Source: an uncultured delta proteobacterium (GTDB lineage: Bacteria; Desulfobacterota; Desulfomonilia; Desulfomonilales; Desulfomonilaceae). Taken from it: a stretch of DNA of 64,000 nt. The notes under the pieces are model-generated. The model had not been told where the DNA came from. It was given only the letters and a program-made list of their open reading frames with translations, and did no database searches. Shown here piece after piece: positions 13,815 through 56,283 of the stretch. The stretch covers positions 320,001 to 384,000 of the forward strand of contig CAWBKB010000003.1 of NCBI GenBank assembly GCA_963789265.1, in the 5' to 3' direction. Numbering within the stretch: position 1 is the stretch's first letter; every line of letters starts with the position of its first letter. The translations under genes were made by a program, and so were the position numbers.

Positions 13815-13890
13815 GCCCCCGTAGCTCAGTGGATAGAGCGACGGATTCCTAATCCGCAGGTCGCAAGTTCGATCCTTGCCGGGGGTACCA
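13815..13890 (+). tRNA. tRNA-Arg(CCT)
   Basis: 76-nt cloverleaf: GCCCCCG/CGGGGGT acceptor stem, TAGCTCAGTGGATAGAGC D arm, TT-CCT-AA anticodon loop, GTTCGATCC T loop, encoded CCA. Confidence 0.97.
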
Positions 13891-49177: not shown

Positions 49178-49264
49178 GCCGAAGTGGCGGAACTGGTAGA
49201 CGCGCCAGGTTCAGGGTTTGGTGGGCGTAAGCCTGTAGGAGTTCGAGTCTCCTCTTCGGCACCA
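49178..49264 (+). tRNA. tRNA-Leu(CAG)
   Basis: 87-nt class II cloverleaf GCCGAAG...CTTCGGC-A-CCA, TT-CAG-GG loop, long variable arm; terminator-like hairpin follows. Confidence 0.96.
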
Positions 49265-52001: not shown

Positions 52002-52500
52002 GATCGGAGCACCTCCTGTGAGTCGTCTGAATTCAGCACGTTTGACGGATGATTTCAGGAATTTCGCCCCAAGTGCACGTGCAAGCCCAACCCAGGGCGT
52101 GATCCAATGGGAGTGCTGACATCCCAAACCGAATCGTCGCAAGATCGGGAATGCCTTGAGGACTTCTGTGGCCGCGTAATCGCCACATTGTCCCGTCCGT
52201 AAAATACACCGAAATCCCTAGTTGTAACAACTGCCGGTAGTGTCCTAATTTGAATTTCAGGATTTAGAGGGAGAGAGCGTACGTGTACCTGAACTACTTA
52301 GCCAATTTACTCTTCTCCGGTCCATTCTTGAACGTTGAGTTGGATTTCATCATTAAGGACTGCCTTTTTCTGCTCGGGGTCAAGACCAGTTAAGACTTGT
52401 TGGTACGCTTCCGGTTGGTTTCCTGGCTTTTACTTTTCCTACGCCAATTGGCCTTCCTTCACTGATCAATTCCCATTCATATTCTTTTCCATTCATTGAA

Positions 52501-52827
52501 TTATCCTTCCTTTCTTTGATGTTCCGCTACAATTGCAGCGCGTACCGCATTCAAAGGAGAGTCCACCGGGCCTTGATGCAGAACAGCAAAGAACTTGCGC
52601 TTGCTGGACTTCTCGTCTGTGACATAAGACCAAGCATAACAGCGGGTAGCTGTAGGGTGCCCCTCAACATCGAATACCTGGACTTCCCCTTCCCAGACAG
52701 TCTTACCCTGAAAAACCTCTCTTACAGGCACAGATTCGACCCACGTAGCCTTGCAGCAGTGGAGATCGCGAATGGCTTTGATGAGGGCCTTGATAGGGGC
52801 TTCGGTGTTAGATTTTGATGAATTCAT
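52501..52827 (-). CDS. Hypothetical passenger protein
   Basis: 108-aa ORF, VESVPVREVFQGKTVWEGEVQVFD..CYAWS..AVRAAI; protein-like. Confidence 0.75.
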   Translation of the reverse strand: MNSSKSNTEAPIKALIKAIRDLHCCKATWVESVPVREVFQGKTVWEGEVQVFDVEGHPTATRCYAWSYVTDEKSSKRKFFAVLHQGPVDSPLNAVRAAIVAEHQRKEG

Positions 52828-52945
52828 GATACTAAATCTCCAGAACGGGTTGAGTTGATCCCCCCGTCCACGGTCTTTGGTTCTAAACTAAATCATATTT
52901 TTGTAAATTGCCATAAAAAAAGAATGAGCCAAAAAGTGGTATCTC

Positions 52946-53072
52946 TTGACAATATCATCATAACTAAGTAGAATAAGGAAACTTATAAATGGGGAGATGC
53001 CTCATGGCAGACGTGCTAAAATTGCGAGAAACTGCTTGACAACCTCAGTGAGAAGAGTTACATTTTTCTCAC
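52946..53072 (+). promoter_or_regulatory. Two tandem sigma70-type promoters with an inverted repeat over the second -10
   Basis: TTGACA-17-TAGAAT (52946-52974), TTGACA-17-TACATT (53036-53064), GTGAGAA...TTCTCAC. Confidence 0.7.
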
Positions 53073-53105
53073 AATAACCAAGCGCGATTCACACGAAAGG
53101 AGTGA

Positions 53106-53888
53106 ATGATCATGGTTGAGGCTGCGAAAAGGAAAGAAAGAAAAGGTCGAGCAATCGCACTAGGTCTCGTGGATGCCTTGAGGATGGTGGAGCAAATTCA
53201 CCGACAGGGTGCGGGATCTGACGTTCCTAAAACTTCGCTTGGGCATATACTTGGGTCCAAACCAACTAGCAGCCTCTTTGATCGAAAAGTCGCCGCGTTG
53301 AAGTCCTATGGACTCATAGAGACACGGGGAGAAATGATTGCCTTAACCCCATTAGGCAAAACTTACGCGATGCCCACAAGCGCAGAAGAGAAAAGCCAAA
53401 TAGCGCTCCAGGCTTTCAGGGAGGTTTCGTTATTCGATAGGCTATTGAGCCAATATAACGGGAATCCCCTACCTGAAATTAATCAATTCTTTTATAACCA
53501 GGTGGCAAGCACTTATGGAATTTCCAATGAGGAAGTGGCCAAATGGATAAAGGAATTTATGGGAGCAGCGCGGCACACTGGTTGTCTCGTTTCAGAACAA
53601 GGACATGATGTTGTTCGTCTTCCCGACCCTGTTGGTGCACCTTTACCTCAACTTAAAGGAGATGCACCGACGATGAACATTCAAGAAACACAAGAATCTT
53701 TTGAAATGGTCAGTTTGAGAATTGAGGGGGCACAAATGACAGTGAACGTTCCTGACAAGGTGGACCCTAATCTTCTCAAAGAAACGATTGGCGCAACAGA
53801 AGACGCTTTAGAGCTTTTGCGTAGAAAGTGGAAGCGGTTAACAGGGCAGCCTTCTCCAACCGATCTAGCTAAAACGCCTCAGAATTAG
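53106..53888 (+). CDS. Winged-helix-like passenger protein
   Basis: KVAALKSYGLIE..IALTPLG pattern; AAAGGAG RBS. Confidence 0.7.
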   Translation: MIMVEAAKRKERKGRAIALGLVDALRMVEQIHRQGAGSDVPKTSLGHILGSKPTSSLFDRKVAALKSYGLIETRGEMIALTPLGKTYAMPTSAEEKSQIALQAFREVSLFDRLLSQYNGNPLPEINQFFYNQVASTYGISNEEVAKWIKEFMGAARHTGCLVSEQGHDVVRLPDPVGAPLPQLKGDAPTMNIQETQESFEMVSLRIEGAQMTVNVPDKVDPNLLKETIGATEDALELLRRKWKRLTGQPSPTDLAKTPQN

Positions 53889-53965
53889 GGGGCCATAATG
53901 CGAAGACCCCGCAGCCTGGATCACGCCAATGAATACAGACTACAGGGTCGCGTCGGATTCACAGT

Positions 53966-54036
53966 GGGGCCTGCATGGTGCCTTCCCGGACTTTACACCC
54001 AGAGGAAGCGCGGTTCGAATCCGCCAGGCTCCACCA
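53966..54036 (+). ncRNA. 71-nt irregular tRNA-like RNA with G3:U70 and A73-CCA
   Basis: GGGGCCTG pairs with CAGGCTCC, then ACCA; GCGG-TTCGAAT-CCGC T arm; no canonical D arm. Confidence 0.65.
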
Positions 54037-54070
54037 CATCTGAGTATAAGACATACTCAGGGAGAATTCA

Positions 54071-54895
54071 ATGAATAAGTTGGGGTTGGATAAGCAAACG
54101 GCAGTTATAAGTGCGCTGGTTGAAGGTGTCTCCATTCGCTCCATAGAGCGCATGACTGGAGTTCACCGGGACACAATTATGCGATTGATGGTACGCGTAG
54201 GTGACGGTTGTCAACGGCTCATGGACGAGAAGATGCGAAGTCTTCCCTGTAAGCATCTTCAACTTGACGAGATATGGTGTTATGTCGGCAAGAAGCAGCG
54301 CCACGTGAAAGACACCGACGATTCTTCTACGGTTGGGGACTTCTACACCTGGGTTGCTATCGACTCTGCCACGAAGCTGATTCCATCTTACAGGGTCGGG
54401 AAACGGGACGCTGAGACAGGACAGGCTTTTGTTGACGACTTGGCTGACCGCTTGGCTAACCGAGTTCAGATCAGTTCAGATGGTCTCAACATCTATGTGG
54501 ATGCTATTGAAGGGTCCTTTGGAGCAGACGTAGACTATGCCCAAATTGTAAAGTTCTATGAAGCGGAACCGATTGGACCCGGTAGATACTCGCCTCCCAA
54601 GGTCGTGAAGGTCGAAAAGTCGTATATCGCTGGGAATCCCGACTTGAATATTGCCTCTACCTCTTATATCGAAAGACAAAATCTGACGATGCGCATGGCG
54701 ATGCGCCGGTTTACCCGGCTGACCAATGCGTTCAGCAAGAAGGTTGAGAACCTGAAAGCTGCCGTGGCCCTGCATTTCGCCCATTACAACTTTGTGCGGG
54801 TTCACAAGACACTGAGAGTGACACCTGCGATGGAAGCAGGGATATCAAACAGACTGTGGAGCATCCGGGAAATGGTAGAGATGATAGGCGACTGA
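54071..54895 (+). CDS. IS1-family DDE transposase, single ORF
   Basis: HTH EGVSIRSIERMTGVHRDT; QLDEIW, SSDG, SYIERQNLTMR, RFTRLTNAFSKK. Confidence 0.93.
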   Translation: MNKLGLDKQTAVISALVEGVSIRSIERMTGVHRDTIMRLMVRVGDGCQRLMDEKMRSLPCKHLQLDEIWCYVGKKQRHVKDTDDSSTVGDFYTWVAIDSATKLIPSYRVGKRDAETGQAFVDDLADRLANRVQISSDGLNIYVDAIEGSFGADVDYAQIVKFYEAEPIGPGRYSPPKVVKVEKSYIAGNPDLNIASTSYIERQNLTMRMAMRRFTRLTNAFSKKVENLKAAVALHFAHYNFVRVHKTLRVTPAMEAGISNRLWSIREMVEMIGD

Positions 54896-55489
54896 TTACC
54901 GATTCTTCTTTCTTGAAAGCTTTGTTAGTGCAGCTTTACTTTTACGCTTCGATTTGTCGAACCCTCTGGCGGCCCCGGAAGAGCTGGGCTGACGAATAAT
55001 TTGGGGGCGATTCTGGGGATTTTCAGGGTGTTCAGGATGCGATATGCTGGGGATGTCGATTGTACATGTTCCCGTGAATCCGTCATAGGTGAAATAAGTA
55101 TTTCTCAGTACATCCCTTCCGACTAGCATACCTATACGTCCGACAAGCGGATCGGCCATCTCGCAGACCCATTTGTTCGATATCCAAAAATTACTGCCAT
55201 CGAAGGTGAAATCTACGGAATAAACTTTACAAAGTTCGAGGCTATGGGCTCCCTGTATAGGGATTTTATCCGCCGCCTGCAAACCAAGTTGTGCGGCCAA
55301 ATCTGCTGATATGGCTGTAATTGATGCGCCCGTATCAATAAGCGCTATCGTCTGAATTTCGGTTGATCCTCCGGTAAGCTGAGCAACAGATATAGGGACC
55401 TTGAGAGAGACATTCAACACCGGTCCCATGCCCAACAACTTATTCCAAGGACCCGGGATGATGCAGCGCCTAGGAATAAACTGGGGCAT
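54896..55489 (-). CDS. Retropepsin-like (clan AA) aspartic protease
   Basis: ALIDTGAS and LVGRDVL motifs; basic C-terminal tail. Confidence 0.85.
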   Translation of the reverse strand: MPQFIPRRCIIPGPWNKLLGMGPVLNVSLKVPISVAQLTGGSTEIQTIALIDTGASITAISADLAAQLGLQAADKIPIQGAHSLELCKVYSVDFTFDGSNFWISNKWVCEMADPLVGRIGMLVGRDVLRNTYFTYDGFTGTCTIDIPSISHPEHPENPQNRPQIIRQPSSSGAARGFDKSKRKSKAALTKLSRKKNR

Positions 55490-55733
55490 GAAATAATCCT
55501 AGAGTCAAGTTTACAGATATCTCAATTGGTTCACGCTTTTCCGTGATTTGCCTCACTAGAATCTGAGCTGACTGTGTGGCCTTAACCCCCTGTTCATACG
55601 CCTCAGCGAAAGACTCAAAGAATCCTAAAAGTTTTTGCTGATGAATAACTACCCATTTCCCTTTATGATCGACAAGCCATTCTCGCCAATGCTCGTCAAA
55701 CCATTCAATTTCCTTATCGAGATAGTCGGCCAT
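55470..55733 (-). CDS. Small DUF5678-like protein
   Basis: HKGKWVVIHQQKLLGFFESFAEAYEQG; overlaps the protease start. Confidence 0.65.
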   Translation of the reverse strand: MADYLDKEIEWFDEHWREWLVDHKGKWVVIHQQKLLGFFESFAEAYEQGVKATQSAQILVRQITEKREPIEISVNLTLGLFHAPVYS

Positions 55734-56283
55734 GATGAAACCTCCGATGATTGATCAGCCGAAACCATTCCTAAGATAAAATTAATAGATTGAACGATTC
55801 AAGTCAAATAGTTTCCAGGTTGTAGCGGAAAGTCGAGAAAAGAAACCCTGAGGTACACGTCCCCTAATTGATACTCCATATCTTATCACGGCAATCCAAA
55901 TTAGGACACTACCCAACTGCCGACTAATGGCATTCCAAAGGAGTTCAAGCCATTTCGCAACTTAGCAGACATGTTTCAGGGTTATTGGGAGATAACTGTG
56001 CATCGGGCAATCAGGCCCGCGGTCCGGGCGGGATCACCGTCCCGCGAGACGCGAGATGCGCGGAAAATGCAGAGAAAAACAATAGCTAGTCCAACGCCAC
56101 GTGAGCCATCGCAGCGTACAGTCAAGCTGGAATTGTCCTCCCTATTGCATGCCGGAATTTGCTATACCCTTTCGCATTAGGTGTGGAGAAAATAGAATTC
56201 TCCGCGGTCTCTGCGTTCTCCGCGGTAAATTACTACGAAATAAGGAGGCAATCCCCCCCGGGGATTACCCAGGGAGAAAAAGG

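Follow-up and report, generated by a model that had tools for sequence, protein, structure and literature searches.

Within a 64,000-nt stretch of contig CAWBKB010000003.1 from an uncultured delta-proteobacterium (assembly GCA_963789265.1; hereafter the window, with all positions counted from its first base), the 182 nt preceding an IS1-family transposase gene had been singled out by an earlier prediction as harboring an irregular transfer RNA (tRNA)-like RNA of alanine identity. Comparative sequence analysis shows that the flagged 71 nt belong, as an intact copy, to a conserved family of tRNA mimics with alanine identity and are neither a chance fold nor a decayed tRNA. By the same kind of evidence, this RNA is a built-in part of cargo-carrying IS1-family transposons, in which the sense strand carries it immediately 5′ to the transposase open reading frame (ORF).

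In the window, the RNA reads GGGGCCTG...CAGGCTCC-A-CCA on the plus strand, with the ATG of the transposase gene at 54071, 34 nt past the CCA. Its parts are as follows:

53966-54036 (+): tRNA-like RNA, 71 nt, identified by family-model score and covariation
53966-53972 with 54026-54032 (+): acceptor stem, 7 bp, GGGGCCT(G) with (C)AGGCTCC, containing G3:U70
53973-53981 (+): mini D hairpin GCA-TGG-TGC, 3 bp plus a UGG loop directly after the acceptor strand, covarying in the family
53982-54008 (+): long anticodon-like arm, with outer helix CTTCC/GGAAG (53982-53986 with 54004-54008) followed by a short inner helix
53991-53997 (+): 7-nt loop CUUUACA capping the anticodon-like arm
54009-54025 (+): T arm CGCGG-TTCGAAT-CCGCC, with loop TTCGAAT at 54014-54020
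54033 (+): A73, from the sequence
54034-54036 (+): encoded CCA, from the sequence

The acceptor with its G3:U70 pair, A73, the CCA end and the T loop read just as the original prediction had described them. Its further description, a short linker in place of a D arm and a CTTCC/GGAAG helix without a clean anticodon arm, holds for the helix, which is the outer part of the long arm, and fails for the linker, which is the covarying mini D hairpin. The acceptor stem comprises 8 bp if G8:C65 is counted, and since C49 and C65 form a mismatch in this copy, the sequence can be read either as an 8/4 or as a 7/5 fold.

Family members are 67-71 nt long, with an acceptor of 7 bp and a T arm of 5 bp. The mini D hairpin begins at position 8 and has 3-4 bp and a loop of 3-5 nt containing UGG. 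The anticodon-like arm consists of nine layers, formed either by 9 bp or by 5 bp, a 1x3 internal loop and another 2-3 bp; its 7-nt loop follows the pattern N-Y-Y-U-A-C-A, and the variable region comprises 0-3 nt.

Conservation of the RNA and its linkage to the transposase

A protein search with the transposase ORF returned at least 8,000 matches; the comparison set consists of 80 loci encoding homologous transposases of 60-74% identity. The same RNA was present directly upstream of the transposase gene in 41 of the 80 loci, 23-69 nt before the ATG. Counts out of 42 below refer to these 41 loci plus the window copy, and counts out of 39 to the distinct sequences among them. Because a MAFFT alignment put the 5′ ends of the RNAs in the wrong place, we relied instead on end-anchored position counts for the acceptor and T arm (39 distinct sequences) and on a model-fitted alignment of 38 sequences. 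The latter leans toward the modeled structure, a bias from which the acceptor and T-arm counts are free because they are end-anchored.

The end-anchored counts showed G1:C72, G2:C71 and G3:U70 to be invariant in all 39 sequences and A73 to be present in 38, along with tRNA-like conservation of T54, T55, C56, R57, A58 and the G53:C61 pair. Pairs 4-7 and 49-50, on the other hand, alternate among GC, CG, AU and UA. In the model-fitted alignment, 94.1% of paired cells can pair, versus 72.5% in shuffles, and 18 of the 22 pairs show changes on both sides. The covariation score was 0.512, compared with 0.123 in shuffles, none of 500 of which reached it, and with 0.06-0.13 when the partners were slid; all five helices of the RNA are supported by covariation. 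Leaving out pair 3:70, we counted 30 G:U cells versus 5 A:C cells, an excess from which it follows that the structure is selected on the plus, transposase-sense strand. The sequences are spread under 10 phylum labels, with the irregular features kept throughout. Covariation upstream of homologous transposases, proposed as a check in the original prediction, was thus found, and the claims that the RNA is a tRNA mimic with alanine marks and neither an attachment-site (att) remnant nor a decayed canonical tRNA are borne out by conservation and covariation across these loci. Folding of single sequences was uninformative on both strands, the window copy scoring no better than chance against shuffles (z = -0.71 for the 71 nt and -0.75 for 53889-54075).

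A covariance model built from 11 RNAs recovers all 41 loci and the window copy. Members of the family score at least 48 bits and true tRNAs at most 37 bits, with one stand-alone irregular tRNA-like sequence at 41.8 bits; given this separation, the model could be used to annotate such elements. Ordinary tRNA-Ala genes reached about 26-37 bits. With family model R2, the window copy scored 75.5 bits, placing it among the best members, and was the sole strong match in its genome. No second copy of the 182-nt stretch was found in the genome, and a DNA similarity search of 60 relatives returned only T-arm-sized matches to ordinary tRNAs.

Presence of the RNA follows transposase phylogeny. On a quick maximum-likelihood tree of the 80 transposases (row L087 was dropped for its short ORF), the RNA label requires 5 changes versus 27.1 with shuffled labels, and none of 500 shuffles was as low; a clade of 34 rows, nearly all labeled alpha-proteobacterial, is without the RNA. 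At the place of the RNA, 18 of 39 RNA-less loci, compared with 0 of 41 RNA-bearing ones, carry a small divergent helix-turn-helix (HTH)-like gene. This gene (L046, L051-L053, L061 and others), found mostly in alpha-proteobacterial elements, lies on the minus strand ~60-80 nt upstream of the transposase ATG; its product starts with M-D/N-F-K/R-x-A-T-D, and a palindrome-flanked TTGACA promoter is likewise found where other elements have the RNA.

Searches starting from the RNA led back to the transposase. Among 122 genomes of the same class, 10 matches of at least 53.9 bits were found in 8 genomes, and 8 of the 10 adjoin a transposase gene; of the two exceptions, one precedes a terminator and then another insertion sequence, the other a further tRNA-shaped sequence, its contig ending 218 nt after the RNA. 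A phylum-wide sample yielded the RNA in 2 of 150 other genomes. Metagenome contigs, subjected to a motif scan and then to the model, contributed 16 members of at least 48 bits (two of them identical). Downstream of 15 lies a transposase gene on the same strand; the record of the 16th ends 46 nt after the RNA.

The triplet in the anticodon position is UUA in 34, CUA in 6, UAA in one and UGA in one of the 42 members, and the string TTACA is present in 40. Position 33 is U in 28, C in 13 and G in one, and position 37 is C in 41 and G in one. U precedes G1 (position -1) in 33 members and C74 follows A73 in 35, with a full CCA being encoded in 12, the window copy included. ARAGORN called 3 of the 42 at default and 10 at relaxed settings, 7 of the latter as tta or cta.

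Three loci depart from the usual arrangement. L103 (G089:C21:954139-954288, minus strand), in a same-family genome, holds two tandem tRNA-like RNAs 7 nt apart, ahead of a transposase whose match is split into three pieces. The first RNA, with loop CUUGGCA, is called tRNA-Pro(tgg) by ARAGORN; the second is ~90% identical to the window copy. In L108 (1498-1680, G080:C400), only 6 nt separate an Ala-type RNA from a second, longer tRNA-shaped sequence downstream of it. The latter has G73, loop CUUAUAA and a long extra arm and by eye resembles the allo-tRNA(UAU) class; ARAGORN called neither of the two. Lastly, L107 (G004:C27), from the genus of the window, has a member with loop CUUUAAA. In place of the IS1-family transposase gene, a clear terminator comes next and then another transposase gene in the opposite orientation, and this copy looks stranded or decayed.

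The transposon and the leader of its transposase gene

The RNA lies inside a 3,678-bp cargo-carrying transposon of the IS1 family, spanning positions 52236-55913 and carrying four ORFs besides the transposase gene. The features outside the leader are:

52228-52235 (no strand): left copy of the target-site duplication, 8 bp, CAACTGCC, directly flanking the left inverted repeat
52236-52252 (+): left inverted repeat, 17 bp, GGTAGTGTCCTAATTTG, an exact 17-mer
52501-52827 (-): cargo or accessory ORF of 108 aa adjoining the left inverted repeat, no Pfam family, with blastp matches in 28 of the 80 loci
53106-53888 (+): cargo ORF of 260 aa upstream of the RNA, with a below-cut-off Pfam match to AAA_assoc_C
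54071-54895 (+): IS1-family transposase, a single ORF of 274 aa, PF03400 at 30.6 bits (cut-off 24.1)
54896-55489 (-): cargo ORF, aspartyl-protease-like, between transposase gene and right inverted repeat
55470-55733 (-): cargo ORF with a below-cut-off match to DUF5678, between transposase gene and right inverted repeat
55897-55913 (-): right inverted repeat, 17 bp, CAAATTAGGACACTACC on the plus strand, an exact repeat
55914-55921 (no strand): right copy of the target-site duplication, 8 bp, CAACTGCC, directly flanking the right inverted repeat

It is the inverted repeats and the flanking direct repeat that bound 52236-55913 and thereby place the RNA inside the transposon, in agreement with the predicted transposon-encoded origin. 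A DDE_Tnp_IS1 transposase, terminal inverted repeats and a duplication within 8-9 bp are all present, these being the values that we take, from ISfinder, to define the IS1 family. The 17-nt end sequence is nearly unchanged even though the transposases are only 60-74% identical: a right-end match to GGTAGTGTCCTAATTTG with at most 2 mismatches was found in 79 of the 80 loci and was exact in 57. Two other complete elements, L025 and L081, measure 2.2 kb and are flanked by 8-bp duplications. Insertion beside TTGACA-like promoters was not evident: before the duplication, the left flank of the window element shows just TTGTAA, and two further flanks gave no clear sign of such a promoter. The transposase gene has no second copy in the genome of the window. 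Since the 108-aa ORF has matches in loci with and without the RNA, it may encode a core accessory protein of this transposon lineage; the 260-aa ORF is weakly similar to ORFs of ~270 aa in five related loci.

The window also contains ordinary genes for tRNA-Leu(CAG) at 49178-49264 and tRNA-Arg(CCT) at 13815-13890. The transposon lies ~3 kb downstream of the tRNA-Leu gene, and the small ORFs between the two might belong to an island.

Around the RNA, the transposase leader comprises the following additional elements:

53894-53906 (+): leader motif CATAAT-GCGAAGA just 5′ of hairpin H2; in related loci, the family form is AUAAC plus a purine-rich run
53907-53949 (+): imperfect leader hairpin H2, consensus fold of 19 sequences
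53950-53965 (+): linker GCGTCGGATTCACAGT (in the family, GGCGAUUC), with U at position -1 before G1
54040-54060 (+): spacer hairpin CTGAGTAT-AAGAC-ATACTCAG, ending at the Shine-Dalgarno sequence GGGAG (54060-54064)
54043-54071 (-): antisense promoter-like site, TTGAAT, 17 nt, TATACT, its TTGAAT overlapping the transposase ATG

The imperfect hairpin that the original prediction had noted at 53907-53949 corresponds to the conserved H2, in which 10 of 12 pairs change on both sides among 19 sequences. On the minus strand, the leader motif forms a pyrimidine-rich tail after H2. The spacer hairpin of related loci is built, by eye, from a different stem around the same GTATA core.

Many relatives, termed class 1, carry a further hairpin, H1, farther upstream. 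Its loop, GAAUCGCC, and the linker GGCGAUUC just 5′ of the RNA are complementary over at least 6 nt in 14 of 19 class-1 sequences, in five sequence variants. Class-1 loci (L024, L030, L035 and others) also have a Shine-Dalgarno sequence and an AUG-AGA-AGA start ~120 nt upstream of the RNA, followed by H1. Such a start occurs in 19 of 41 relatives (with GUG in two and AGG-AGG in one), and the frames opening from it end after 3 to 81 codons, at unrelated places. It could represent a translated mini-leader that remodels the fold, a part absent in the window.

On the sense strand, 11 of 42 loci have a promoter that agrees with the consensus in at least 11 of 12 positions, at a distance of 49-82 nt before G1; the agreement is perfect in 5 of them, and a promoter tool confirmed such promoters in L032, L019 and L092. 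The nearest sense promoter-like sites of the window are located at 52946-52974 and 53036-53064, before the 260-aa cargo ORF. In the opposite direction, antisense sites matching at least 9 of 12 positions occur in 24 of 42 loci, compared with 7% of shuffles and with 2 of 42 loci for the plus strand; their -10 element ends 2-18 nt from A73. The tool also found the site in L032 and L092; the site in the window has its predicted start near the complement of the CCA end. Antisense promoter-like sites are found in 9 of 38 RNA-less loci as well. All three loci scanned for it (L032, L019, L092) have a minus-strand intrinsic terminator at H2 plus a T-run. Together, these sites predict an antisense RNA of ~120-140 nt that would cover exactly the tRNA-like sequence.

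Several other interpretations of the leader were discarded. A plus-strand promoter after the RNA was found in only 2 of 42 loci. A coding upstream frame was rejected: no reading frame is conserved across the RNA in the 42 loci, about one third of which have no frame at all that stays open between the RNA and the ATG, and the stop overlapping the ATG in the window is a trivial feature, as ATGAATAA contains a stop in each of the two other frames. A guide-RNA role was dismissed on the grounds that the match between loop and inverted repeat is just 4 nt (YUAC with GUAG, by eye), which we judged too short. Matching of the anticodon to rare transposase codons does not apply, as the triplet reads a stop codon.

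Possible roles of the RNA

As for function, we tentatively favor, with somewhat less than even confidence, a tRNA mimic in the transposase leader that would be cut out by tRNA-processing enzymes, be chargeable with alanine and gate transposase expression. The RNA would be made as part of the leader transcript, which in the window would probably start at the cargo-gene promoter-like sites at 52946 and 53036 and in relatives often at the near-consensus promoter 49-82 nt upstream. It would fold like a pre-tRNA, allowing RNase P to cut before G1 (53966) and the tRNA 3′-end nuclease to cut after A73 or CCA (54033-54036). These cuts would sever the transposase ORF from upstream transcription, thereby limiting or gating transposase synthesis, and release an RNA of ~71 nt that, by virtue of the invariant G1-G3:U70-C72 and A73, would be a substrate of alanyl-tRNA synthetase (AlaRS). 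G3:U70 together with A73 suffices for AlaRS charging of tRNA-Ala, transfer-messenger RNA (tmRNA) and minihelices. The backward promoter-like site, with H2 as its terminator, would supply an antisense RNA as a second layer of control, comparable to RNA-OUT of IS10.

Gating is consistent with the fixed place of the RNA in the leader and with U at -1, as it is with the tandem arrays, with promoter-like sites on both the sense and the antisense strand, and with the repressor-like gene that RNA-less relatives have instead. Processing of the tRNA type is made plausible by the frequency of U at -1 (33/42) and of C74 (35/42), and by the occurrence of tandem tRNA-likes 7 nt apart. Several observations weigh against this reading. 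Processing alone has no need of G3:U70, so the strict alanine identity is left unexplained by it, as is the YUACA loop. The CCA is encoded in few members, and the window copy lacks the H1 hairpin and the pseudoknot partner of many class-1 relatives; its antisense terminator tail is weak by eye, and all promoter and terminator calls are consensus matches only. DDE transposases are usually restrained by weak promoters, repressors, frameshifting or antisense RNAs, and a near-consensus promoter is odd before a gene that should stay low. This oddity suggests that the promoter may chiefly serve to make the small RNA.

A more far-reaching version, which we regard as doubtful, has the transposase wired to the tRNA machinery of the host through an AlaRS-chargeable leader mimic plus its own antisense RNA. 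Output would then depend on the status of RNase P, tRNA 3′ processing, AlaRS and EF-Tu, and the excised, charged RNA might also act on ribosomes at UAA or UAG, including the UAG stop in the inverted repeat of the element itself.

Action on the ribosome could also be the whole purpose: the excised, alanine-charged RNA would serve either as a UAA/UAG reader inserting alanine or as a minimal tmRNA-like ligand, with its benefit arising in trans. We consider this unlikely. It would account for the conservation of both functional ends, alanine identity on one side and the UUA or CUA triplet (34 plus 6 of 42) on the other, and draws on the tta or cta assignment of 7 of the 10 relaxed ARAGORN calls, on tmRNA being the best Rfam match and on the near-consensus promoters, which suggest high expression of the RNA. 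In addition, the transposase stop of compact elements is a TAG inside the right inverted repeat, but RNA-less elements end in the same TAG, and the transposase genes contain no in-frame stop that would need reading. The loop itself is ill suited to decoding. At position 37, where decoding tRNAs are expected to have a purine, 41 of 42 members have C and one has G, none the usual A; at position 33, C is found in 13 members and G in one. With an arm of nine layers instead of five and no variable loop, the loop would also be misplaced relative to the CCA end. Other triplets (UGG, UGA, UAA) occur, there is neither a tag frame nor a tmRNA pseudoknot, and a normal ssrA exists elsewhere in the genome. 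Precedent for alanine insertion nevertheless exists, as irregular tRNAs with G3:U70 were shown by Mukai et al. (2017; PMC5389517) to insert alanine in Escherichia coli.

Alternatively, the tRNA shape might be a scaffold or stability module, with the leader being the target of the antisense RNA or being bound by the transposase to affect its activity or cis preference; aminoacylation would then be irrelevant. This we hold to be quite unlikely. Structured RNAs do occur beside recombinase genes, as exemplified by RNA-OUT of IS10, the bridge RNA of IS110 and the omega RNA of IS200/605, and the antisense -10 elements ending 2-18 nt from A73, the minus-strand terminators at H2 and the elaborate 5′ domain with its covarying pseudoknot in class-1 relatives all fit such a module. 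However, an antisense target needs no T loop, D-loop GG, G3:U70 or A73, yet these are the most conserved features; the conserved loops share just the 4-nt YUAC/GUAG complementarity with the inverted repeats, as judged by eye, and the antisense sites extend to 9 of 38 RNA-less loci.

The original prediction had also entertained the idea that the RNA decoys anticodon nucleases or toxins. Whether as a decoy or as a substitute tRNA, it would shield the element or its host from tRNA-cleaving toxins or nucleases. The idea finds some encouragement in the toxin-antitoxin-like cargo of certain elements (Gp49/HTH_3 in L021), but appears very improbable: the cargo varies (DUF5343, P63C, Gp49/HTH_3 or none) while the RNA stays beside the transposase gene, and no toxin is consistently linked. 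No nuclease acting on a tRNA of the Ala type with a UUA loop is known to us. Irregular tRNAs have been noted near toxin-antitoxin systems (PMC5389517).

Finally, that there is no functional RNA at all, the sequence instead being left over from a decayed tRNA-Ala or tmRNA or from an att site, or else serving as an upstream coding ORF or as a DNA-level promoter (TTTACA as -35, the T loop as -10), is scarcely tenable: the insignificant single-sequence fold, an ORF at 53898-54074 that spans the RNA and ends in an ATGA overlap, and the promoter-like spacing of TTTACA, 17 nt and TCGAAT stand against covariation with a G:U bias, irregular features conserved under 10 phylum labels, lengths of 67-71 nt that are not multiples of 3, the lack of an open frame to the ATG in about one third of the 42 loci, host ssrA and tRNA-Ala stems that differ, and a putative -10 without the essential A at position 2, in a family whose loop conserves ACA and not TTG.

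If the favored gating reading is correct, a mobile element would here be tying its activity to the translation and RNA-processing state of the cell in a new manner, and the RNA would provide a bacterial counterpart of tRNA-like punctuation such as that by mascRNA.

Comparison with known RNAs and elements

The tRNA-finder and Rfam scans proposed alongside the original prediction did not assign the RNA to a known class. ARAGORN reported no tRNA at 53966-54036 and, within the window, only the tRNA-Arg and tRNA-Leu genes; no Rfam family reached its cut-off at the RNA in the window or in 15 relatives scanned, and the Rfam tRNA model (RF00005) gave no match there. The best, and only, Rfam match at the window RNA was tmRNA (RF00023), at 20.8 bits versus a cut-off of 47. 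In the relatives, tmRNA matches of 17.6-41.1 bits were seen in 5 of 15, all under the 47-bit cut-off, in addition to mascRNA (RF01684; 30.3 bits, cut-off 42.5) and tRNA-Sec (25.2 bits) in one of 15 each. The tmRNA match in the window runs from model position 1 to 374 with 312 positions deleted and only 23 nt between the halves; only the tRNA-like ends therefore match.

Compared to canonical tRNAs, the RNA shares the 7-bp acceptor, the 5-bp T stem and T54-T55-C56-R57-A58. The canonical set of a U8/N9 linker, a D loop of 7-11 nt, a 5-bp anticodon stem, U33, a purine at 37 and a variable loop of 4-5 nt is not found, and neither the tRNA finder nor the Rfam tRNA model detects the RNA. The marks of tRNA-Ala identity (G3:U70, A73 and an NCCA end) are present at the sequence level, with charging itself being a prediction. 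The three tRNA-Ala genes of the genome have stems that differ from those of the RNA.

The RNA resembles the tRNA-like domain of tmRNA in having G1-G3:U70-C72, A73 and a canonical T arm, in a D region that is reduced but contains GG, and in the replacement of the normal anticodon arm by a helix. Unlike tmRNA, it stays below the gathering score, has no tag reading frame or pseudoknots between the halves, comprises just 71 nt closed by a 7-nt loop, and resides inside a transposon leader; the conserved D-loop motif of tmRNA does not align. The true ssrA of the genome is on another contig (G000:C5:685095-685451; 181 bits), encodes the tag ANNYEYALAA and has a different acceptor stem. Within G000:C5:679615-685451, this gene is followed downstream by another tmRNA-like copy that is nearly full (82 bits) and by two 3′-end fragments, a pattern as expected from islands integrated successively into ssrA.

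No description of such an RNA in transposase leaders was found in the literature searched. The nearest prior report is that of Mukai et al. (PMC5389517), which describes irregular tRNA genes in Acidobacteria and delta-proteobacteria, close to toxin-antitoxin and transposon genes; their anticodons are unexpected, UUA being among them, and G3:U70 is present in some. The irregular tRNA shape, UUA triplet, G3:U70 and transposon vicinity of these RNAs are all shared by the family described here. The authors suspected such tRNAs to serve no translation, and a role of the kind considered above could explain these apparently non-translating RNAs near mobile elements. In the sequence tables of the article, TTACA occurs only twice, both times outside the stated anticodon, so by this test the family is absent there. 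The allo-tRNAs of the same article are 8/4 or 9/3 folds with a long variable arm and mostly serine identity. Resemblance to an 8/4 allo-tRNA, as invoked originally, proved superficial: unlike allo-tRNAs, the family is 7/5 without a long variable arm, 67-71 nt in length, with a mini D hairpin and a nine-layer anticodon-like arm.

Like mascRNA and the MEN-beta RNA (RF01684), and like other tRNA-like elements that RNase P processes within larger RNAs, the RNA would be a tRNA-like fold within a longer transcript, and its excision, as proposed here, would set the ends of the neighboring RNA. mascRNA is eukaryotic and is not aminoacylated, in contrast with this bacterial, mobile RNA and its strictly conserved alanine identity.

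At the level of the element, the parallel to RNA-IN/RNA-OUT of IS10 lies in an element-internal promoter-like site that faces the transposase promoter and in an antisense RNA that would overlap the 5′ part of the transposase transcript. Unlike in IS10, the overlap would cover the tRNA-like leader and not the ribosome-binding site, and the antisense RNA is predicted. With the IS1 family, the elements share the PF03400 transposase, ends of the form GG...TG, the 8-bp duplication and passenger genes between the ends. Classical IS1 is ~770 bp long, produces InsA and InsAB′ by frameshifting and is without a structured RNA, whereas the elements here measure 2.2-3.7 kb and have a single-ORF transposase and a tRNA-like leader. 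While tRNA-like RNAs on mobile elements are already known, the literature searched gave no account of a tRNA mimic with strictly conserved alanine identity that sits right before a transposase gene under 10 phylum labels.

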